A stretch of DNA of 64,000 nucleotides from Spirochaetia bacterium (lineage in GTDB: Bacteria; Spirochaetota; Spirochaetia; UBA9216): assembly GCA_963677925.2 (NCBI GenBank), contig CAXXYH010000004.1, forward strand, positions 64,001-128,000. The letters are read 5' to 3'. The notes beneath the pieces are model-generated. The model made no database searches and had not been told where the DNA came from. It saw only the letters and a list, made by a program, of their open reading frames with translations. Positions within the stretch are counted from its first letter, which is position 1; each line of letters begins with the position of its first letter. Positions 49,821 to 62,598 of the stretch are shown one piece after another. The translations under genes and the position numbers were made by a program.

Positions 49821-50816
49821 CTACTCGTATAAAAAACAGGCTACCTGATGCTTCTCTCCCTGCTCCTTAAGCTGGGGAATGCTGTTCTTGCACCTATCCA
49901 TTTTCTTGGGACAGCGGTCATAGAAATAACATCCTGTGCGTTCACGATCCGGAGAAGGAACATCTCCCGAAAGAATAATTCTCTTCCGGTTGCGCTCAAC
50001 ATCAGGATCAGGAATCGGGACTGCAGAAAGAAGGGCTTCCGTATACGGATGAAGCGGTCTTTTATACAGTTCGTCCGCCTTTGATATTTCAACTATCTTT
50101 CCAAGGTACATTACAGCGACCCTGGTACTGATATGCTGGATAACCGCAAGGTCATGTGCAATAAACAGGAAGGTAAGATCGAACTCCTTCTGAAGGTCAT
50201 CAAGAAGATTAAGAATCTGGGACTGGATTGAAACGTCAAGCGCAGAAACCGGTTCATCAGCAAGAATCAGTTTGGGGTTCAGAGCAAGAGCACGGGCTAC
50301 GCCGATTCGCTGTCTCTGCCCTCCTGAAAACTCATGGGGATATCGGTTTTTAAAGAACCTTGACAGGCCAACCTTTTCCATAAGGTCTTCAACCCTGGCG
50401 TTAATCTGCTGCTGGGACATCTTCAGCATTCCCCGGTTTTTGTAGATAACCATCGGCTCTGCAATGATATTTCCTGCCGTCATCCTGGGGTTCAGCGAAG
50501 CGTAGGGATCCTGGAAAACCATCTGAATACCCTTTCTTGCCTGAAGCAGATCATGCTCCTTTGCATTGCACAGATCCACCCCTTCATAGATAACCTCACC
50601 TGAGGTCGGTTTATGAAGCTGGGCTATACATCTTGCTGTTGTGGATTTTCCGCAACCTGACTCGCCTACGAGTCCGAGGGTTTCACCCTTTTCTATCTCA
50701 AAGTCTATGCCGTCAATTGCACGAATGGCGCCGACTTTCTTTTTAAGTATTACCCCTTCTTCAATGGGGAAATGCATTTTCAGGTTCTTAACCTGAAGAA
50801 GTGTATTATCTGCCAT
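49821..50816 (-). CDS. oppF: Oligopeptide ABC transporter ATP-binding protein
   Basis: GESGCGKST, FQDPYASLNP, YPHEFSGGQRQR, DEPVSALDVS, HPYTEALLSAVP. Confidence 0.93.
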   Translation of the reverse strand: MADNTLLQVKNLKMHFPIEEGVILKKKVGAIRAIDGIDFEIEKGETLGLVGESGCGKSTTARCIAQLHKPTSGEVIYEGVDLCNAKEHDLLQARKGIQMVFQDPYASLNPRMTAGNIIAEPMVIYKNRGMLKMSQQQINARVEDLMEKVGLSRFFKNRYPHEFSGGQRQRIGVARALALNPKLILADEPVSALDVSIQSQILNLLDDLQKEFDLTFLFIAHDLAVIQHISTRVAVMYLGKIVEISKADELYKRPLHPYTEALLSAVPIPDPDVERNRKRIILSGDVPSPDRERTGCYFYDRCPKKMDRCKNSIPQLKEQGEKHQVACFLYE

Positions 50817-51796
50817 TATTTTTCCTCCTCATAAAGCCAGCATCTGACCTGACGGCCTTCACCGAATTCTATTCTTGGAGGATATGTATTCCGGCATTTA
50901 TCCATAGCCTTTTCGCAGCGGGGATGGAAGGGGCAGCATTCCGGTAAATCAATTACGTTAGGCGGCTGACCCTTAATTGAGTAGAGCTTCTCATCAGTCG
51001 GCTTATCAAGCCTGGGAACTGACTTTATCAGGCCCTGAGTATATGGATGCCTGGGTTCCTTGAATATCTCATCGTTGGTACCCTTCTCAACAATACGGCC
51101 GGCGTACATAACGCAGACAGTATCACAGATTCCGGCAACTACACCAAGGTCGTGTGTAATCATGATTACAGCTGTATTCATCTTTGTGCAGAGATCCTGC
51201 ATTACCTCAATAATCTGTGCCTGAATTGTTACATCAAGAGCTGATGTAGGCTCATCGGCAATTAGAATCTCAGGGTCACAGCTGAGCGCCATCGCAATCA
51301 TTACCCTCTGGCGCATACCGCCGGAAAACTGATGCGGGTAATCATTGATTCGCTTTGACGGGTTGGGAATTCCAACCATTTCAAGCATTTCAACTGCACG
51401 CTTTCGTGCAGCGTCTTTATCAAGATCCTGATGCAGCATAATTGTCTCAATCATCTGTGTTGAGATTCTGAGAAAGGGATTAAGGCTTGTCATCGGATCC
51501 TGGAATATCATCGAAATCCTGTTTCCACGAAGCTTCCTGATCTCGGCTTCGTTCATCTTGAAGATGTCCTCACCGTCAAGCAGAGCCTCTCCGCCCATAA
51601 TTTTCCCGGGAGGGGAAGGAATCAGCTTCATAAGCGACAGGTTGGTAACTGATTTACCCGATCCTGACTCACCTACAATTCCAAGCATCTCACCCTTCTT
51701 CAGCTGGAAGGAAACACCGTCAACGGCCTTAACAACGCCGTCATCCGTATTAAAATATGTTCTAAGGTCTTTAACCTCTAATATTACATCACTCAT
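50816..51796 (-). CDS. oppD: Oligopeptide ABC transporter ATP-binding protein
   Basis: [37 protein letters not shown]. Confidence 0.93.
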
Positions 51797-51810
51797 TAAA
51801 CGCCCCGTCC

Positions 51811-52899
51811 TTATAGTTTATTCTTACTCTGAGGATCCAGAGCGTCACGCAGTCCGTCTCCGAAGAAGTTCATCGAAAACAGGAAGACTGTCATTGCAAC
51901 AGCGGGGAACCAGAGCATCCATGGATAGTTTGTCATGGCATAAACCCCGTCATGGATAAGAACACCCCAGGAGGCATACGGAGCCTGAACTCCGAGACCA
52001 AGAAATGAAAGAAAAGCTTCAAGCATTATAAAAGCCGGAACCCTCAGCGTTGTATAAACAACAATAACACTCATTGTGTTCGGTATAAGATGCTTGAATA
52101 CGATTCTTGCCGTACTTGCTCCTGCAGCACGGGCGGCTTCTACGAATTCCGAGTTTTTAAGTGATATTATCTGCCCGCGGACAACACGGCAGACAGTCAG
52201 CCAGCTCACCAGAGCGAGGGCCAGAAAAAGGTTGGTAATGCTTTTACCCCATATGGCCATCATGATGATAACGAGCAGCATGTAGGGCAGCGAGTACATG
52301 ATATCAACGAATCGCATCATCAGGGTGTCGAAGGTTCCGCCGATGTAACCCGCAAGAGCTCCTAGAATAACTCCGATAACTGCTGTCGCTATAGCGCCGA
52401 TAAGGCCTATCATTATTGAGACCTGACCGCCGTAGATTATTCTGGCAAGAAGATCACGTCCCAGCTCATCTGTACCAAGGTAGTAAACCCTGTCATGAAC
52501 CTGAACTTCCTCGCCTGTCAGAAGTACCTTTTTCTCGGTTGCAACCCGCTCCTTAAGTTCCTCAATCTGTTCAAGTTCCGACTTATTGAGTTCACGGCCT
52601 TCTTTTTCGGCAAATCTCGAAAGCAGGTCAACCTTCTTTTCTATGATCAGCTCTCCGGCTGTTTTGGTGGAAGGAGGGAGGTACTGATGCTCCAGAACCT
52701 GCTGCTTATATGAATAGATAGGGAGAATTCCGGCTGACAGTGAAATAATCGCGTAAATCACCATGAGGACCAGGCCTATCATTGCCATTTTGTTCTTTCG
52801 AAGCCGTCTCCAGGCATCGAGCCAGAGGCTCACACCCTTTACAGGCTGGTTAAGTTCATTAACCATTTTATTGTCTTCTGTTCTTATTACTTCGCTCAT
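51811..52899 (-). CDS. oppC: Oligopeptide ABC transporter permease
   Basis: LWLDAWRRLRKNK, LGTDELGRD, EFVEAARAAGAS, GDGLRDALDP. Confidence 0.93.
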   Translation of the reverse strand: MSEVIRTEDNKMVNELNQPVKGVSLWLDAWRRLRKNKMAMIGLVLMVIYAIISLSAGILPIYSYKQQVLEHQYLPPSTKTAGELIIEKKVDLLSRFAEKEGRELNKSELEQIEELKERVATEKKVLLTGEEVQVHDRVYYLGTDELGRDLLARIIYGGQVSIMIGLIGAIATAVIGVILGALAGYIGGTFDTLMMRFVDIMYSLPYMLLVIIMMAIWGKSITNLFLALALVSWLTVCRVVRGQIISLKNSEFVEAARAAGASTARIVFKHLIPNTMSVIVVYTTLRVPAFIMLEAFLSFLGLGVQAPYASWGVLIHDGVYAMTNYPWMLWFPAVAMTVFLFSMNFFGDGLRDALDPQSKNKL

Positions 52900-52908
52900 G
52901 ACAACTCC

Positions 52909-53835
52909 CTAACTGTATGAAATTCTAGGATCAAGATATCCGTATAGAATATCTACGAGGAAGTTCATTACGACAAGAATCAGAGCATAGACAATAACTG
53001 TACCCATAATCATTGTGTAATCACGGTTAAATGCGGACTGCACAAAGTGGCGCCCGAGCCCGGGAACACGGAATATCTGTTCAACAACAATTGAACCGGT
53101 GATAATTCCGGAAAAAGCCGGGCCGAGATAACTTACAACAGGCAGTGACGCACCTTTAAGAACATGCTTAAGCATTATATATGAAGTCTTCAGGCCCTTG
53201 GCTCTCGCAGTTCTGACATAATCAGATCTGATGGACTCAAGAAAACTTGCCCTGGACAAACGTGCAATTGTAGCAAAATACTGATAGAACAGTGTAATAA
53301 CAGGAAGGATAAGTGCAACAGCTCCCCATTCATCAAGCCATCCGGCGACAGGAAGCAATCCCAATTTTAATGAAAATATAAACATCAGCACCGGACCGAT
53401 AACGAAGGTAGGCACCGAGATCCCCACAACCGCGAACGACATCCAGGTGTAGTCAACCCAGGTGTTCTGCCGGAGTGCCGAGAACATGCCTGCCGCCATA
53501 CCCAGAATTACAGCAAGAACAATTGAAACCGAGCCAAGAATAAGCGAATGCGGCAGGCCCTGTCCAATGTAATAATTTACATCGTAATCCTTATATTTAT
53601 ATGAGGGACCGAAGTCTCCACTCAGAACGCTTACCAGATAACGTCCGTACTGCTGGATGAGCGGTTCATCCATGTGATACTTTTTTTCGATATTTTTCAT
53701 AATCTGGACAGGGATCTTCTTTTCAGAACTGAAAGGCCCGCCCGGCGCGACTCGGATAAGAAAGAAACAGATCGTGATGATGATCAGCATAGTAGGAATT
53801 AAACCGAGAGCGCGTCTAATAATAAATTTAGACAT
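52909..53835 (-). CDS. oppB: Oligopeptide ABC transporter permease
   Basis: APGGPF, GDFGPSY, DYVRTARAKGL, DILYGYLDPRI. Confidence 0.93.
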   Translation of the reverse strand: MSKFIIRRALGLIPTMLIIITICFFLIRVAPGGPFSSEKKIPVQIMKNIEKKYHMDEPLIQQYGRYLVSVLSGDFGPSYKYKDYDVNYYIGQGLPHSLILGSVSIVLAVILGMAAGMFSALRQNTWVDYTWMSFAVVGISVPTFVIGPVLMFIFSLKLGLLPVAGWLDEWGAVALILPVITLFYQYFATIARLSRASFLESIRSDYVRTARAKGLKTSYIMLKHVLKGASLPVVSYLGPAFSGIITGSIVVEQIFRVPGLGRHFVQSAFNRDYTMIMGTVIVYALILVVMNFLVDILYGYLDPRISYS

Positions 53836-54027
53836 ATTTTCCCCTTGTAAAAAACAGTTTGGTTAATTTTCTGTTTTTAGCTGCTTCATTGGTTATGAAG
53901 TTACTTTTCCGTAAACAAGTGATTATATATATGAATTACCGGAATTTCAAGGTAAAGATCTGCTGTTCATGGAAATACGGATGCTAATGAACTAAATTCA
54001 GATACATATCTTATTCAGGAGAAAAAC

Positions 54028-55287
54028 ATGATAAGAAAAATAGCCACAGGCTTGGCAGTCTCTGTCATTCTTCTTGCTTTGACAGGCTGTCCCGATTTTG
54101 AAATCCCGGAAGATAATGCGGGCATCATAGATCTGCCTTCCTCAATTGCCTCTGACGCATCTTCAAGAGGCCCGGCATCAAAGGCTGCCAGGACTCCCGA
54201 AGGCGACGCTATAAGCGCTCTTTTCTCGCCGATCAGGGATTATATCGGCTTTGCCAATGATCTTGGACAGCAGCTTGAAGGACTGATTGTAGGACTTCCG
54301 GCTATAGCCGAACTGACCGAATATGCCGAGGCCTCTGCCGGAAGCTACAGCGAAAGCGGCGACAACTACGTGAGCGTAAACAGTGTAAGTGTTGATGATT
54401 ACGATTTACGGGTAAATCTCAGCAGCACTGCTGATGACAGCGGTCTTATTCTGCAGCTCTTTCTTGATTCCTCAGTTGAAAACAAGGAAAAGGGCATGGC
54501 GATTTTTATCACCGACATGGACGGAAGCGACGGCGGAGACGCCGGTGACGAGCAGGTTAAGATAATTTACGACGTCACAGCATCTTCAACCGAACCGGCT
54601 ATGGAGCTGATGGTAGGCGGTGCAGTCGGCGGACATACCGAAAACTGGGCTCCTGATGCCCTTTGGCTGAAAGTATGGAAAAACGATACAACACTCAAAG
54701 TCTGCGGAATAAGCTCACACCCGAATGCGGAACTTCAGACAGACGATATGTTTCTTGATTCAGGAGTTACATCCAGGTACTACATGTTTTCCGGAATAAC
54801 CTATACAAACTCAAATGTAGCAGCAGTACAGGTTGCAATCCCTGTCCAGGAAGTAACCGCTGACTTCTACACAACTTACAGCCCCGGGCAGCTGCTTAAA
54901 GACTATCAGCTTTATGAGATTAAAACAAATAATACCGGAGACTGGGCTAATGCGGCAGATTATCTGTACACGGATCCTGGTGAATATACTTCTTATTTCT
55001 CAACAGCACCTGCCGGATTTGATTCAAACTTCACTGAAGACATGATGATGGATACAATAGATGCATATCAGGCATACCTTAATGCCAGCGGTTCAGGCGT
55101 ATCTGCAGACCTGAGTGCTTATGTTTTTATAGCAAACCTTACAAACCCGGTTTATTTCAGCAGCACCGGATATTATGACCACGGTACAACAGTGCCATCA
55201 GGATATCCGTCAATCAGCAACGCACCCGCCGAATCAAACTGGGTTATACCCGATAATATCGATGCGCTTTCCATCACCTTCGAATAG
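54028..55287 (+). CDS. Hypothetical acidic lipoprotein
   Basis: AGGAG SD; lipobox ALTG-C; 419-aa S/T/D/Y-rich ORF. Confidence 0.75.
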   Translation: MIRKIATGLAVSVILLALTGCPDFEIPEDNAGIIDLPSSIASDASSRGPASKAARTPEGDAISALFSPIRDYIGFANDLGQQLEGLIVGLPAIAELTEYAEASAGSYSESGDNYVSVNSVSVDDYDLRVNLSSTADDSGLILQLFLDSSVENKEKGMAIFITDMDGSDGGDAGDEQVKIIYDVTASSTEPAMELMVGGAVGGHTENWAPDALWLKVWKNDTTLKVCGISSHPNAELQTDDMFLDSGVTSRYYMFSGITYTNSNVAAVQVAIPVQEVTADFYTTYSPGQLLKDYQLYEIKTNNTGDWANAADYLYTDPGEYTSYFSTAPAGFDSNFTEDMMMDTIDAYQAYLNASGSGVSADLSAYVFIANLTNPVYFSSTGYYDHGTTVPSGYPSISNAPAESNWVIPDNIDALSITFE

Positions 55288-55326
55288 AAACTTATAAAAC
55301 AAACCAACAGATATTTATGAGGACAC

Positions 55327-55361
55327 AAAAAAGGCAGCTTCCGGTAGGGAGCTGCCTTTTT
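55327..55361. terminator. Bidirectional terminator between the lipoprotein gene and oppA
   Basis: AAAAAAGGCAGCTTCC-GGTA-GGGAGCTGCCTTTTT. Confidence 0.85.
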
Positions 55362-55395
55362 ATTTGACCCGGCGGAAAGATCCGCCGTGATAGTC

Positions 55396-57021
55396 TTATT
55401 TCTTGTAGATAGCCTTCCAGGGATGAATATCCTGTACTGTTTCGTACCATCCGCCCCATACGTCAGTGTCAATCCAGTTAGCTGATGAATAGTAGTAGAA
55501 AGGCATAACAGCCATGTCTTCACCGATTGCAAGTTCTTCAGCTTTTCTGAGTACGTCAAATCTTGCTTTTCCGCCGGGCATTGTTGCTGCTTCTGCGAGA
55601 AGAGCATCAAATTCAGCACTGTTGTACTTACCGTCATTGTTTCCTGAACCTGAGTAAAGGAGGTCAGTGAGGAAGGTATTAGGATCAACATAGTCTCCCT
55701 GCCAACCGGCACGGGCTACGTCGAAGTTCTGATTCTGTCTGTTGTCAAGGAAGGTTGCCCATTCCTGGTTTTCAATCTGTACATTGATTCCAAGAACTTC
55801 AGCCCATTTCTGCTGTACATACTGAGCTATGTTTTTGTGACCTTCACTTGTGTTGTAAATAATTGTTGTTTCAGGGAAACCTGCTCCGCCGGGGAAACCA
55901 GCTTCAGCAAGAAGAGCCTTTGCTTCTTCAACATCTTCTTCAAATCCAACAACTGCAGGGTAAAGACCTGGAAGAGGAGGAGTAAGACCGAAAGCAGGGA
56001 ACTGACCGCCTCTGGTAACCTTGTCAACAAGTTCCTGTCTGTCGATAGCCATTGCAAGAGCTTTTCTTACACGGACATCATCAAAAGGAGCCTTGGTCAT
56101 GTTGAACTCGTAGTAGTAAGTAATAAAAGAAGCGTTTGTTCTGTATCCCTTATCGAGCTTCATTTCATCAAGTCTGTTCGGAGGAGTTTCCTGCAGCCAG
56201 TTAATCTCACCGTTCAGATACATGTTTGTAGCTGTATTCTGATCATCAATCGGGAAGAAAACGATCTGGTCGAGTTTTACATTTCCCTTGTCCCAGTAAG
56301 TTTCACTCTTTTCAACGATAATCTTATCCTGTGGAGTCCAGCTTACGAGGTTGAAAGGACCGTTTGAAACCATATTTTCAGGTCTGGTCCATGCGTCACC
56401 GTATTTTTCAATTGCATGCATAGGAACTACAGCAAATGCGTAATGTGAAAGCATACCAAGTACGTAAGGTGCGGGTCCAGTAAGGTCGAACTGGAATGTA
56501 TAGTCATCAAGAGCTCTGATTGCTACTGCATCAGGTCCGGCTTCACCGGCATTGTATTCTGCAGCACCCTTAATTACCATTGCTGGAAGGTATGCATATA
56601 CAGCTGCTGTTTCAGGTGCCATGAATCTGAGCCAGGAATCAACAAACTGCTGAGCAGTTATCTTTGTTCCGTCTGACCAAACTGCGTTCTTTCTAAGGTG
56701 GAAAGTCCAAGTCAGTGAATCATCAGATACTTCCCAGCTTTCAGCTGTTCCGGGAATAGCATCAAGAGATTCCGGGTCATAGGTTACAAGGCCTTCAAAA
56801 AGCGCCATGTAAAGGTTGTGCTCAGGTACACCTTCGATAACGGCAGGATCCAGTGATTCCGGTTCTGCTCCGTTGTCAAACTTAAATACTACCGGTTCAG
56901 CCATAGGTGCGGGTGCCGCTTCAGTACCGGTAGAAGCTTCCTGCTTACCGCCTGCAAAGGTAAAGGCAGGAACGATCATCAGGATCAGCAGTGCTGCAAC
57001 AATCAGTTTTTTCATTTTCAT
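55396..57021 (-). CDS. oppA: Oligopeptide ABC transporter substrate-binding protein
   Basis: EPESLDP, LFEGLV, WTFHLRKNAVWSDG, VSNGPF, FDDVRVRKALAMAIDR, GWQGDYVDP. Confidence 0.93.
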   Translation of the reverse strand: MKMKKLIVAALLILMIVPAFTFAGGKQEASTGTEAAPAPMAEPVVFKFDNGAEPESLDPAVIEGVPEHNLYMALFEGLVTYDPESLDAIPGTAESWEVSDDSLTWTFHLRKNAVWSDGTKITAQQFVDSWLRFMAPETAAVYAYLPAMVIKGAAEYNAGEAGPDAVAIRALDDYTFQFDLTGPAPYVLGMLSHYAFAVVPMHAIEKYGDAWTRPENMVSNGPFNLVSWTPQDKIIVEKSETYWDKGNVKLDQIVFFPIDDQNTATNMYLNGEINWLQETPPNRLDEMKLDKGYRTNASFITYYYEFNMTKAPFDDVRVRKALAMAIDRQELVDKVTRGGQFPAFGLTPPLPGLYPAVVGFEEDVEEAKALLAEAGFPGGAGFPETTIIYNTSEGHKNIAQYVQQKWAEVLGINVQIENQEWATFLDNRQNQNFDVARAGWQGDYVDPNTFLTDLLYSGSGNNDGKYNSAEFDALLAEAATMPGGKARFDVLRKAEELAIGEDMAVMPFYYYSSANWIDTDVWGGWYETVQDIHPWKAIYKK

Positions 57022-57127
57022 GAAATTCTCCTTTTGAATTTTTGTTTTACGATCTAACAGTTTAATTTATTTTAACTCACTTGCCAAGAATAAATTTTCT
57101 GCGGTTTATAAAGTAATAATTTTGAGG

Positions 57128-58822
57128 TTAGAAGTCACTATTAATCAGTTTTTTACATTCAGAATGGACATTCTCAACCGGAACACGCCATGTCTTCCGG
57201 GTTTTTCTTTCATAAAACTCTGCATTTCCGTCCTCAAGACTCTTTGTTGAGATAACAATCCTGTATGGAATTCCAAGCAGATCAAAATCCTTAAACTTAA
57301 CACCTATGGATTCATGACGGTCGTCAAACAGAACCATTGACCCGAGATCCTCGGCTAGTGAATCAACAACCTTTTTAACCCTGAGAGATTTCCCGATCCC
57401 CATAAGGTAGAAGCAGTATGGAGTAAGTTCCATCGGCCAGATAATTCCCTGCTCATCATGGTTTGCCTCTACCACAGCGGCCATAAGCCGGCCAAGGCCT
57501 ATACCGTAGGAACCCATGTGCGGATAGCCTACTCCGCCGTTTTCTTCAGTAAAGGACAGGCCAATTGATTTTGAGTAAAAATCACCCAGTTTGAAAACAT
57601 TCCCGACTTCAAGCGCGGCAAACTCTTTCATCGGGGTTTCACACTGAGTGCAGAGATCCTTTGCGTGAATACTTACAATATCACCTATCAGTTCACTTTC
57701 AAAATCACGCCCGAAATTGGCATTTACTATATGTTTGCCGGGTTTATCTGCACCTACAACAAGATTAGCGGACTGGGCTACAAGATCATCAACAACATGC
57801 CGGAATCCGGTAATCTCGGCGGACGGAAATAAAAACCCGGGCTGCAGTCCGAAAGAGGCAACCTCATCCTGAGTGGCCGGGCCGATGACAGGTTCTTCCA
57901 GAAACCTGGAGAGCTTTTCATTGCTGATTTCATAATCAGCTCTGTAGGTTACAAGAACCCAGTCTTTCAGGGTTTTGTACAGGGAAGTGACAGCTATCCG
58001 CGGCAGGGGGATTTTTAAGGCCCTGGCCAGATCATGTACCCCGGCATACTGGGGTGAATTGATTTCACTGGACATCACAGGAATTTCATTGATGATTGAT
58101 TTCTTGCCGACTGCTATATCACGATTAGCAGTGTATCCGCATGACGGACAGGTAATTACACGAGCGTCACCTATTTCACTCGGCATAAGAAATTCATAGG
58201 CCCTGTCCCCTGAAAGAGAACCGACTGCAGATTCCGCCGTAACAAAGGGCACCTGACATCGCTCAAAAATCTTTTCGTAGGCTTTAAAAACTTTCGGAAA
58301 AAAGATATTGAGATCAACATAGGACCGGTGGAAGGAATAGGCATCGTTCATAACAAATTCTTTTGCCCTGAACAGTCCGTTCTTAACTTTTTCTTCATCC
58401 CTGTACTTAGTCTGGAACTGATAAAGAAATCTGGGGACATCACGATAGCTATTAATGGCCATTCGTGCAATCTGGGTGATAGGTTCAAGATGACTTGTTG
58501 AAAGTACTAGATTATGTCCTGTGCGGTCTGAAAACCTGATAAGCTCACGGCCTATAAGCTGGTCTCTTCCTGTTTTCTTCCAGAGATTCTGCGGGACCAC
58601 AAGCGGAAGTTCAATTTCCTGACCGCCTAAATTCTCAAGTTCTTCACGAATTACGCCCTTAAGCTTGTCCATAACCCTCATTCCAAGCGGCATCATGGCA
58701 AAAAGACCGGGTCCGACCGATCTTATGTACCCGCCCCTGTGGAGAAGGGAAAAACTTGCAGCCTTTGCCTTGCCGGAGCTGTGTCTGAGAGTGTTATTAC
58801 CAAAGAGACTTGAATATTTCAT
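57128..58822 (-). CDS. Proline--tRNA ligase-like protein (bacterial type, divergent)
   Basis: Class II motifs PLGMRV, YQFQTKYRDE...EFVMNDAYSFH, EVGNVFKLG, MGSYGIGLGRLMAA; INS domain; anticodon domain DDR..S.GVKFKDFDLLGIP; several non-canonical active-site residues. Confidence 0.85.
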   Translation of the reverse strand: MKYSSLFGNNTLRHSSGKAKAASFSLLHRGGYIRSVGPGLFAMMPLGMRVMDKLKGVIREELENLGGQEIELPLVVPQNLWKKTGRDQLIGRELIRFSDRTGHNLVLSTSHLEPITQIARMAINSYRDVPRFLYQFQTKYRDEEKVKNGLFRAKEFVMNDAYSFHRSYVDLNIFFPKVFKAYEKIFERCQVPFVTAESAVGSLSGDRAYEFLMPSEIGDARVITCPSCGYTANRDIAVGKKSIINEIPVMSSEINSPQYAGVHDLARALKIPLPRIAVTSLYKTLKDWVLVTYRADYEISNEKLSRFLEEPVIGPATQDEVASFGLQPGFLFPSAEITGFRHVVDDLVAQSANLVVGADKPGKHIVNANFGRDFESELIGDIVSIHAKDLCTQCETPMKEFAALEVGNVFKLGDFYSKSIGLSFTEENGGVGYPHMGSYGIGLGRLMAAVVEANHDEQGIIWPMELTPYCFYLMGIGKSLRVKKVVDSLAEDLGSMVLFDDRHESIGVKFKDFDLLGIPYRIVISTKSLEDGNAEFYERKTRKTWRVPVENVHSECKKLINSDF

Positions 58823-58969
58823 AGCTTTATTAATTCTAATATAAAATCAGCGGAAATACAGCAATTTTCTCATGAAGTGTAGAAAGAACAGGCTCAAAGC
58901 TTGACATTTGTCCTTATTATCAGGATCCTTACAATATAAATGAACTAAGGAATATTTTTTAAGGAGTGA

Positions 58970-60268
<1,299 letters not shown>

Positions 60269-60326
60269 CGAAATAAAACTTCGTTTTGTTTCAGGATTTT
60301 TTGATGAATAAAAATCCACAGCAAAC

Positions 60327-60360
60327 AAAAGCCGCATCCTTCACGGATAGCGGCTTTTTT
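60327..60360. terminator. Terminator between the convergent eno and MCP genes
   Basis: AAAAGCCGC-ATCC-TTCAC-GGAT-A-GCGGCTTTTTT. Confidence 0.85.
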
Positions 60361-60384
60361 ATTATATACTGAATAAGAGCCTGT

Positions 60385-62598
60385 TCAGGTTTCCTCAGTC
60401 TTATCAGTTTTAAACTGTCCGAAATTATCTTTCAGTTCTTCAACTATATCACCCAGCTCCTGTGAGAAATCCACCATCTGCTGCATTGCCCTGACAATTT
60501 CACGCGCTCCTGTGTTTGATTCGGCCATACCGGTTGAAACCCTGGACGAAACTTCCTTTATCTGCATTGAACTGTTCTGCATCAGCGATGTTCCGGATTT
60601 TATTTCAGCGGATCCGCTTCTGATGGACAGAGTAACTTCGTTAATCTGGTTGGTTGATTCAAGGATCTGCTGACCGCCGATGTTAAGCTCACTCACCGAC
60701 TGCTCTATTTCCGAGAAGGCATTTACAGTATCATCAACTTCTGCAGATATCCTGTCAAATGCCTGAGTAGTTTCAGCAACATTTTTATCTGTTTCAAGCA
60801 CTGAACTGGTTATATCCTTGATACTCTTGGAAATAGCCTTCGCAGAATTTCCAGCAGAATCTGCAAGCTTCCTGATTTCCTCTGCAACTACTGCAAAACC
60901 CTTTCCGGAATCTCCGGCATGCGCAGCCTCTATGGCAGCATTCATTGAAAGCAGATTAGTCTGTGCAGCAATCCCATTAATTGCGGAAGCCATCTCCTGA
61001 ATTTGATTGATATGCTCGACTACACTTTTAAATGCGGAAGCCGTCTCTTCAATCTTAGTCCTTCCATCCGATGCCACAGCAGCCAGGGCTACGGTAGTCT
61101 GTTTCTTATTCTGTGCTACATGATTAACACTGCCAAGAGAGGCCATCATCTGGGTGATGGCTGCAGTAGACTGCTCAACCATTGAAGACTGACTGATTAT
61201 CTGCTCATCGACTGATGATATATTTCTGGTAACCTGCTCAATAGCAGCAACCGTCTCATTGATATTATTATCAAGAATATCTATCTGCCCGCTTATTGAT
61301 TCAAGATTTGCACTGATTTCTTCGATAGCTGTAGAGGTTTCTTCCGCGGAAGCTACTACATTCTGTTTAATCAGGAAGGTATTTCCTATTACCCCCTTTA
61401 AATCATTCATCAAAGTACATAGTTTAAGAACAAATTCGTTGAAGTTTTTCGCCATTCCCCCTATTTCATCCTTTGTCAGAACAGGCATCTCAACTGTTAG
61501 ATCTGCATCAGCTGCAGCAAGATTTGCAAGATTACTGCCCATCTCAATAAGCGGCTTAATCATCAGTCTTGAGTAGATAAGATAAACTACAATCTGCAGA
61601 ATCAGCAGACCTGCTATAAATGCAAGAATAGGCGGTAAAACGGAACCGGTTACAATTTTTGTAATCTCACTGATCGGGGTTGATATAAACAGACCCCATC
61701 TTGTTCCCGGAATTTGAAATGAATTAATCAAAGACTTTCCGAAAGGCGTCGTTCCCTGAAAGAAATAACTGAAATCAGTTGAAACATGATTAACAAATTC
61801 GGCAATGTCAGCTTCTTTAAAGCCGAGAATCACCGCAATAGATTCCAGTGTAAGCATGTTTTCAGGATCAAAAAAATATTCTTCCTCACCGTTAGGATTC
61901 CAGATAAAGAAACCTCCGACCCTGTCGTAGATGCCAATCGTCTTTCCGGTTGATTCCATCACAGTTTTTAGTATTCTTATGATAGGATCCAGCTGATAAT
62001 TAAGCGCAAGAATCCCTGCTGCGTTTCCTGATTCATCTGTCACACCCAGAGCGACGGTTATTACAATTTTCGGGGCAGCTCCCTGTTCAGCCGAAACCCT
62101 TGGCTGGCTGATAAACGGTTCACCCGGGTAGGCAAGCGCGCCATCATAGTAGTCCCGCTTTCTGACATCAAAGCCTTCGCCTATCTGCACATCACGCCCG
62201 AGAAGAATTCCTGTTGTCTTAGTACCTGAAGCGAACACCAGATCAATATCAGTCCACTTAATTGCATATTCCATTCGCTTACTTAGCTCTGCCGCACCCT
62301 CTAATTCTATAAAATCATCATTATCAAGACCATCAGGGACCTGATCCAGCCTTTTTAGAACCTCAGCTGTCTCAGGATCAGCCGCAAGATTCCGCAGAAG
62401 CTCAAAACTTTTAATCATCTCGGACTTTACTTCCATTGCTGAGGATATCCCTTCCGCAAGTAGAAGCTCTTTTTCCTTATCGCCGAAACTGTTAGCCTGA
62501 ATAATATACATAAAAACGGAGAATATTCCCGCCACAAGCAAAGGCAGTACGATAGATAATACAATAATATTCTGTTTAACCGATCTTTTGCTCATCAA
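60385..62598 (-). CDS. Methyl-accepting chemotaxis protein (Cache-like sensor, HAMP)
   Basis: 2 TM helices; FDVRKRDYY; [11 protein letters not shown]; [37 protein letters not shown]. Confidence 0.95.

Follow-up and report, generated by a model that had tools for sequence, protein, structure and literature searches.

A conserved prolyl-tRNA synthetase paralog with a putatively rewired amino-acid pocket and editing site in Spirochaetia

Background

Streptomyces ProRSx (Vargas-Rodriguez et al. 2021) is a duplicated bacterial prolyl-tRNA synthetase (ProRS) with a non-canonical role beside the housekeeping enzyme. It has kept its proline specificity, has a co-evolved tRNA-ProA with an Ala anticodon, and is the only ProRS-derived case listed in a review of duplicated synthetases (PMC9437257). 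The present study deals with another duplicated ProRS, encoded at positions 57128..58822 on the minus strand of a 64,000-nucleotide stretch of DNA from a Spirochaetia bacterium (assembly GCA_963677925.2, contig CAXXYH010000004.1). This whole stretch is called the window below. The gene encodes a divergent ProRS paralog of 564 aa with an ATG start, belonging to the Leu/Ile subclade of a lineage termed clade A; protein length, start and residue readings were taken from our own open reading frame (ORF) and translation of these coordinates. As judged from its residues, this ProRS paralog, which is conserved and under selection, has had its amino-acid pocket and editing site rewired, and it probably does a different ATP-dependent job. 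Like ProRSx it stands beside a housekeeping enzyme. In contrast to ProRSx, its proline site is changed and no dedicated tRNA was found in the genome.

In the same review further ligases are described that arose from paralogs of aminoacyl-tRNA synthetases, namely PoxA/EpmA, amino acid:carrier-protein ligases and the adenylate-only LeuRS-I (PMC9437257). These share the scaffold and the adenylate chemistry with their parent enzymes, the substrate or acceptor having changed. They have lost or replaced tRNA-binding domains or adjoin their acceptors, whereas the window protein keeps a full anticodon domain and its locus is without an evident acceptor gene nearby. Bacillus thuringiensis possesses a P-type enzyme, BtProRS1, and an E-type enzyme, BtProRS2, both described as functional and both acting on P-type tRNA-Pro (PMC11229370). 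The likeness here lies in two ProRS genes per bacterium, and the pair may fit those clade A enzymes with the usual Glu that are paired with an archaeal-type ProRS. In contrast, the genome of the window has two P-type copies and no archaeal-type one, and one of the copies is without the proline-anchoring Glu.

The ProRSs of Enterococcus faecalis (2J3L), Staphylococcus aureus (5ZNJ) and Mycobacterium tuberculosis are like the window protein in the three-domain fold, in motifs 2 and 3 and in the anticodon-domain core. It differs from canonical P-type ProRSs by Leu112, Ser110, Ser202/Ser204, Val278 and the loop GFLFP, by not being the only ProRS of its genome, and by a score below the NF006625 cut-off. 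The ProRS with a defunct editing domain of SternJohn et al. 2007 is reportedly still a working ProRS. This enzyme and the window protein would both have an INS-type domain without editing, but in the window protein the aminoacylation pocket appears to be altered too. In the open-access literature searched, neither the clade of the window protein nor any other ProRS paralog from a spirochaete was found to be described, and the same holds for a ProRS without the Glu of the TXE loop.

Results and discussion

Architecture and active-site residues

The Pfam domains tRNA-synt_2b (PF00587, residues 96-454), tRNA_edit (PF04073, residues 257-370) and HGTP_anticodon (PF03129, residues 485-558) of the window protein follow the bacterial ProRS plan of a class II core that carries an INS domain between its motif 2 and its motif 3, with an anticodon-binding domain of class IIa after it. 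The nearest solved structures in HMMER searches were S. aureus ProRS (5znj, E 6e-100) and E. faecalis ProRS (2j3l, E 3e-98), at 33-34% identity. An AlphaFold2 model, for which a 71-sequence alignment served as input, is confident over the full length (mean pLDDT 93.1, pTM 0.90), and its top fold match in Foldseek is 2j3l, the E. faecalis enzyme with a prolyl-adenylate analogue (TM 0.93, rmsd 2.4 A). As modelled, the fold is intact. Pfam domains and fold match agree with a preliminary description of the sequence, in which the complete bacterial ProRS architecture had been noticed. The NCBIfam equivalog models gave a mixed picture: the window protein is above the cut-off of TIGR00409 (412.8 against 306.7) and below that of NF006625 (510.7 bits against 558). 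The canonical copy of the same genome, located on contig 3, scored 719.5 (NF006625) and 607.1, and P0033, a clade A protein of the Glu type, scored 564.7.

Residue equivalences were derived from HMMER alignments to 5znj and 2j3l and from our translation, and the readings given in the preliminary description (LSTSHLE, motif 2, AYEF, VTS and GFLFP) all proved correct. All features of the gene named in the following are on the minus strand. The TXE loop (residues 107-113, 58484..58504) reads LSTSHLE where LGPTHEE is found elsewhere. Ser110 replaces the Thr and Leu112 the Glu, so that both residues binding the alpha-imino group of proline are missing. The proline-binding loop together with the YEF element (residues 199-211, 58190..58228) reads AVGSLSGDRAYEF and contains Ser202, Ser204 and Tyr209, the SHEF loop being AYEF (residues 208-211). 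In a study of the M. tuberculosis enzyme (MtbProRS), Thr111 and Glu113 are assigned to the TXE loop, with the Glu forming an ionic bond to the alpha-amino group of proline, and the loop 200-207 closes over proline and shapes the pocket (PMC13629369).

The elements of adenylate chemistry are retained. Class II motif 2 (residues 141-164, 58331..58402) reads RDEEKVKNGLFRAKEFVMNDAYSF, given also as RDEEKVKNGLFRAKEFVMND; the RPR of its loop is replaced by KVK, and R141, E143, R152 and F156 are kept. Motif 3, GSYGIGLGRL (residues 437-446, 57485..57514), is intact and includes R445. Thus, the ATP-binding arginines of motifs 2 and 3 (R141, R152, R445) are present, as had been noted before, and the whole set of R141, E143, R152, F156, E405 and R445 is invariant in the clade. 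Adenylate-binding residues named in the MtbProRS study are Arg142, Glu144, Phe157, Arg462, Glu422 and Glu211 (PMC13629369); their equivalents in the window protein, R141, E143, F156, R445, E405 and E210, are all there. The anticodon-binding domain (residues 485-558, 57149..57370) keeps the core DDR.ES.G.KF.D.DL.G.P.R with Phe in place of Ala513.

The core of the INS domain (residues 257-370, 57713..58054) obtained 41 bits with Pfam tRNA_edit, and in a whole-genome scan the score was 45 bits versus 93 for the INS domain of the canonical copy. In the alignment Val278 (57989..57991, in the context IAVTS) occupies the position of the editing-site Lys, a residue which the title of Bartholow et al. 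2014 calls 'strictly conserved'. The editing-site loop GFLFPS (residues 329-334, 57821..57838) stands where GxxSP is found elsewhere. Of the editing elements, the residues at positions 278 and 332 are replaced, by Val278 and Phe332, and His364 is kept. This is not the pattern of a dead ProRS, with degenerate motifs 2 and 3 and a kept editing Lys: here it is the Lys that is lost, with both motifs intact. Two CxxC pairs are located at the INS hinges, C391/C394 (57638-57652) and C225/C228 (58137-58150). These four Cys, which look like a metal-binding cluster, are invariant in 71/71 aligned spirochaete ProRSs, the canonical copy included.

The rarity of the substitutions was assessed with the 150 best cluster representatives obtained when 1.84 billion proteins were scanned in full with HMMER; they are 30-47% identical to the query. 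The TXE Glu is conserved in 139 of these 150 ProRSs, and 3 further rows have a gap or are truncated. The other 8 have Asp (3), Leu (2), Ala, His or Thr, mostly together with broken motifs 2 and 3. The only representative with Leu for Glu and intact motifs, P0123, is itself a member of the clade of the window protein. The editing Lys is K in 126/150 and the Gly corresponding to residue 204 is G in 130/150. The Lys of the MKD element in motif 2 is less constant (103/150). The His of the HEF element, thought at first to be normally invariant, turned out to be H in only 71/150, with Y in 18, E in 17, Q in 9 and K in 7; E. faecalis ProRS reads SKEF. Hence, the Tyr at this position is no departure from an invariant residue.

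Phylogeny and selection

A tree was calculated from 87 sequences, comprising both ProRS copies from 40 related genomes and database hits; it omits the near-identical copy of the congener, an outlier with 28% identity, two fragments and three database rows that were truncated. Two clades resulted. In clade B (23 rows, support 100) the residues are canonical, the His of HEF among them. In clade A this His is replaced by Tyr or Phe; the 64 rows of clade A group with a support of 100 whether the trait columns are included or removed. The window protein belongs to clade A by tree position, by Tyr209 and by its divergently transcribed enolase neighbour. Within clade A, every row in which Leu or Ile replaces the TXE Glu lies on the same side of a single branch (37 rows, Shimodaira-Hasegawa-like approximate likelihood ratio test (SH-aLRT) 91), and nested in this Leu/Ile clade are an inner group of 34 rows (support 99) and the 22-row subclade of the window protein (support 100). 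After removal of the trait columns the best tree still requires one change from Glu to Leu/Ile. At least two separate losses of the editing Lys occurred, one in the subclade of the window protein and one in genome G012. According to the source names of its closest homologs, the organism belongs to the Spirochaetales. Among the 120 closest database homologs, the TXE position is occupied by Glu in 90 and by Leu or Ile in 30, and in 20 of the latter 30 the editing Lys is absent as well.

For a comparison of single sites the sequences were grouped into clade B, Glu-type clade A, and Leu/Ile rows with and without the editing Lys. Residue 112 is Glu in 100% of the clade B and Glu-type clade A rows and Leu or Ile in 33/33 distinct Leu/Ile rows. 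Residue 202, part of the pocket lid, is Met in clade B and Tyr or Phe in Glu-type clade A. In the Leu/Ile clade this hydrophobic position has become Ser in 91%, and with A199 and F471 it is among the residues newly fixed there at 91-94%. A second new Ser is found at residue 204, which is Gly elsewhere, in 100% of the window's subclade and 69% of the other Leu/Ile subclade. The editing Lys is found in all clade B rows (100%) and in 96% of those of Glu-type clade A, and its position, 278, is variable in the window's subclade (V 70%, E 15%, P 5%; also D and L). Confined to this subclade are changes of S332 to Phe (95%), N359 to Asp (90%) and A513 to Phe or Tyr. Altogether, only a small number of otherwise conserved sites differ in the Leu/Ile clade, and these are at functional places. 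R141, E143, R152, E155, F156, Y162, E210, E405, R445 and motif 3 are 100% conserved in this clade, and the anticodon-domain core (D500, R502, S505, K509, D512, G517, P519, R521) is invariant in 71/71 aligned sequences.

It had been asked whether SHLE, MND and YEF together mark a conserved clade. This applies to the Leu/Ile residue, which defines one subclade, and does not extend to the other two: the Tyr of AYEF and the motif-2 loop differences are common to the whole Spirochaetia clade A and not peculiar to the window protein, and N159 is not clade-wide (K 70%, N 30%). The substitutions are neither scattered nor unconserved in homologs, since Leu/Ile marks a single clade under strong purifying selection.

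The paralog is under very strong purifying selection. Between the genome of the window (G000) and its congener (G001), dN is 0.007 and dS 0.506, giving a dN/dS of 0.014, compared with 0.019 for the canonical copy. Among 11 pairs of greater age, dN is higher in the paralog than in the canonical copy, by a factor of 1.4 to 2.1; dS is saturated for most pairs older than G000/G001, and a long-term omega of the paralog is therefore given for one pair only (0.036). Mean pairwise identity in the window's subclade is 0.76 for the N-terminal catalytic part, 0.60 for the INS domain and 0.72 for the anticodon domain, and the ratio of INS to core identity is near that of canonical ProRSs. The subtree of the canonical copies (family f1 and G012, support 100) is broadly congruent with that of the paralogs, which indicates that both copies have been kept since the ancestor of f1 and G012. 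The omega of 0.014 and this long-term co-retention largely rule out simple decay.

Canonical proS and tRNAs of the genome

A protein search of the genome, which comprises 5.04 Mb in 4 contigs and is 99.6% complete, revealed a second full-length ProRS homolog on contig 3 with 39% identity to the window protein. It is fully canonical, reading LAMTHEE, RDDPRPRAGLIRVREFKMKD and AHEF with the editing Lys present (AKA). Thus, the window gene is not the only proS of this nearly complete genome, and the supposition that it represents a second ProRS copy was correct. An archaeal-type ProRS above the cut-off was not found in this genome.

ARAGORN detected 46 tRNA genes, all ordinary. Three are tRNA-Pro genes (CGG, GGG, UGG), each with C1:G72 and A73, and the CGGG...CCCG-A acceptor stem is confined to these three. 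A tRNA-Pro-like acceptor stem combined with a foreign anticodon does not occur among the 46 tRNAs. An orthogonal tRNA of the ProRSx kind was not found, and the suggestion that the paralog might charge an unusual tRNA found no candidate among the tRNAs of the genome. Two free-standing ORFs of the INS superfamily (YbaK/ProXp-like, about 154-169 aa) are located at C3:1016869-1017216 and C3:623672-624019, which implies a trans-editing capacity apart from both ProRS copies.

Distribution in Spirochaetia

Clade A was found in 25 of 41 related genomes and is thus more widespread than the clade-B-type copy, which is present in about 22. Of the 25, 24 also hold a clade B or an archaeal-type ProRS; the exception, G025, is 81% complete. 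Genomes with clade A as the apparent sole P-type ProRS also contain an archaeal-type ProRS over the TIGR00408 cut-off. At the class level, 151 Spirochaetia genomes, each at least 90% complete, were searched, and 59 of them carry a clade-A-like gene: 53 full-length hits of at least 536 bits, one gene split over two contigs, one in two adjacent frames, and 4 more divergent ones. Clade A calls beyond the sequences examined rest on bit score and identity. All 20 additional clade A genes that were examined are of the Glu type, and three of the 4 more divergent genes, also examined, read YEF or YGF. A full second ProRS accompanies clade A in 56 of the 59 genomes, clade B in 22 and the archaeal type in 36, including 2 with both. 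Two others (G143 and G151) contain only a contig-truncated archaeal-type fragment besides clade A, and in one (G153, 94% complete, 240 contigs) a second ProRS was not found. In these samples it is common for a genome to have clade B as its sole ProRS, or to have only the archaeal type. As far as can be judged from these sequences, clade A appears to be an extra ProRS that almost never serves alone, the copy of Spirochaeta thermophila included, and the subclade of the window protein is, by its residues, the most altered branch of it.

Several individual genomes deserve mention. In G124 the clade A gene lies in two adjacent frames (C1:2632871-2634480, 47% identity each) beside a whole clade B ProRS. 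It is probably a pseudogene, which means that the accessory copy can be lost. G016 and G052 apparently have three ProRS genes each (clade A, clade B and archaeal type); G016 is a draft of 600 contigs, so its count may reflect mixed origin. Four genomes of one genus (G036, with L057 at C1:218324-220558, and G061, G083 and G119) combine an archaeal-type ProRS with a very degenerate P-type ProRS-like ORF, which is 28-29% identical to the window protein, reads QTGHYEE in the TXE region and has an unrecognisable motif 2.

Gene neighbourhood

The divergently transcribed neighbour of the paralog is an enolase gene (58973..60268, plus strand, identified by Pfam) that serves as a synteny marker of clade A, being divergently upstream in 19/25 clade A loci. 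Directly downstream follows a gene for an oppA-like solute-binding protein (55396..57021, minus strand, Pfam SBP_bac_5), and beyond it oppBCDF (49821-53835, minus strand), with oppB, C, D and F recognised. The opp cluster is interrupted between oppA and oppBCDF by an ORF of 419 aa on the plus strand (54028-55287), which bears a signal of the lipoprotein type (LALTGC) and is without a Pfam match. An oppA-like gene is next on the same strand in 10/25 clade A loci, Glu-type copies included. Hence, the position of oppA, which the preliminary description held to be possibly incidental, is conserved synteny and not a one-off, although any functional link would be conjectural.

Rfam searches of 53000-61000 returned no families at E<=0.1, promoter and terminator scans gave consensus-level sites only, and no terminator-like site was detected by the terminator scan between the paralog and oppA on the minus strand. 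At Glu-type clade A loci a two-domain UPF0158+GNAT gene lies directly downstream of proS in 12/12 informative cases (e.g. L020:3185-4078(+) and L026:3170-4108(+)). It is absent from 13/13 Leu/Ile-clade genomes searched. This gene was considered and rejected as an obligate partner: it is present in 6 genomes without clade A and is therefore a syntenic neighbour.

Functional interpretation

The reading we prefer, with a confidence that stays a little short of even, is that the paralog is an active ATP-dependent ligase on a ProRS/tRNA-Pro-binding scaffold that no longer prefers proline and does not edit. With equal reserve, the gene may be regarded as a neofunctionalised member of an accessory, Spirochaetia-specific bacterial-type ProRS lineage, clade A. 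The canonical proS on contig 3 would then charge tRNA-Pro for translation. The paralog would still bind ATP, and most likely tRNA-Pro too, and would still form an acyl-adenylate, from a substrate other than L-proline that has no need of a carboxylate partner for a charged alpha-nitrogen. Proofreading of Ala-tRNA-Pro would be missing. Only Leu or Ile, and never Asp, Gln or Ala, occupies the anchor position, the new Ser, Ala and Phe are fixed, and the editing Lys position drifts, which argues for a pocket that was remodelled rather than relaxed. Likewise, the single change from Glu to Leu/Ile and the fixation of S202, A199 and F471 suggest selection for a new pocket and not drift. In a narrower form of this proposal, possible and yet clearly less probable, the Leu/Ile subclade would comprise ligases of ProRS descent that adenylate a non-proline acid and load it onto tRNA-Pro or a non-tRNA acceptor outside ordinary decoding. 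Proline-shaped carboxylates that have no charged ring nitrogen, for instance a 5-oxoproline-type lactam, an N-blocked acid or a hydroxy acid, are candidate substrates on which we can only speculate; they are suggested by residue chemistry, i.e. by the replacement of Glu by Leu/Ile and the two new Ser of the lid.

Several points weigh against this interpretation. The idea of an alternative substrate is derived from such residue chemistry rather than from a ligand-bound model. Since all other alignable pocket residues (M158, D160, Y162, S438, E113) are kept, weak proline activation is possible. Charging of tRNA-Pro with anything but proline would be harmful unless the product were kept off the ribosome, and no partner gene, unusual tRNA or biosynthetic cluster hinting at a new product was found. 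When the trait columns are left out, the SH-aLRT of the 37-row grouping that includes G022 drops to 13.7, with 81 for the inner 34 rows and 100 for the 22-row subclade; a second origin of the Glu-to-Leu/Ile change in the G022 group is thus possible. Furthermore, the compared genomes are related to one another, so that the co-occurrence counts overstate independence.

It is rather unlikely, though not by a wide measure, that the paralog is still a prolyl-tRNA synthetase in the form of a slower, specialised or condition-specific isozyme, for example a stress-tolerant one or one insensitive to proline-site inhibitors. Proline would then be bound by Ser110, Glu113 and the new Ser, and proofreading would fall to the canonical copy together with the free-standing INS-family proteins, for which the canonical INS domain and the two INS-superfamily ORFs provide a basis. 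The full architecture, the intact ATP-binding, motif and anticodon-domain residues, the bacterial identity set on all three tRNA-Pro genes and the TIGR00409 score are consistent with such an enzyme, and functional ProRS isozymes coexist in B. thuringiensis (PMC11229370). However, the Glu bonding to proline is present in 139 of the 150 representatives, the sole row without it that has intact motifs 2 and 3 comes from the same clade, and its substitute is hydrophobic instead of Asp or Gln. Moreover, the proline-binding lid is altered at two positions and the NF006625 score is under the cut-off. The altered pocket and editing sites would also fit a catalytically silent pseudo-synthetase that binds tRNA-Pro and/or ATP and serves in sensing, in sequestration or in regulating the neighbouring opp peptide-uptake genes. 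For this the high conservation of the anticodon domain (identity 0.72 versus 0.76 for the core), the conserved synteny with oppA and the lack of a terminator-like site before oppA on the minus strand can be adduced. We consider it unlikely, given that the residues of adenylate chemistry are invariant in 33 distinct sequences of about 45-70% identity, which binding alone is not expected to require, and that oppA adjoins only 10/25 clade A loci, unaltered Glu-type copies among them.

A redundant copy that slowly decays after the lineage gained a canonical ProRS would account for the variable position 278 (V, E, P, D or L), the raised dN of the paralog in the 11 older pairs and the split clade A copy of G124. 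Against this, the reading frame is intact in all searched f1 genomes carrying the paralog, omega is 0.014 at a dS of 0.5, the replacements are clade-wide with new residues fixed, and the structure model is confident over the whole length. Decay, largely refuted by the dN/dS analysis, is accordingly very improbable.

Conclusions

New biochemistry arises time and again from duplicates of aminoacyl-tRNA synthetases, with antibiotic resistance, deliberate mistranslation, EF-P modification and natural-product ligases among the examples. The clade described here is a natural experiment of this kind: it is long-lived, and selection on it equals in strength that on the housekeeping ProRS. While the parts for adenylation and tRNA binding have been frozen, the proline anchor, the lid and the editing Lys were replaced stepwise. 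There is also a consequence for annotation. Database source names label several homologs of the clade 'proline--tRNA ligase', 70%-identical ones included, and the window protein itself passes TIGR00409; counting such genes as working proS may be wrong.

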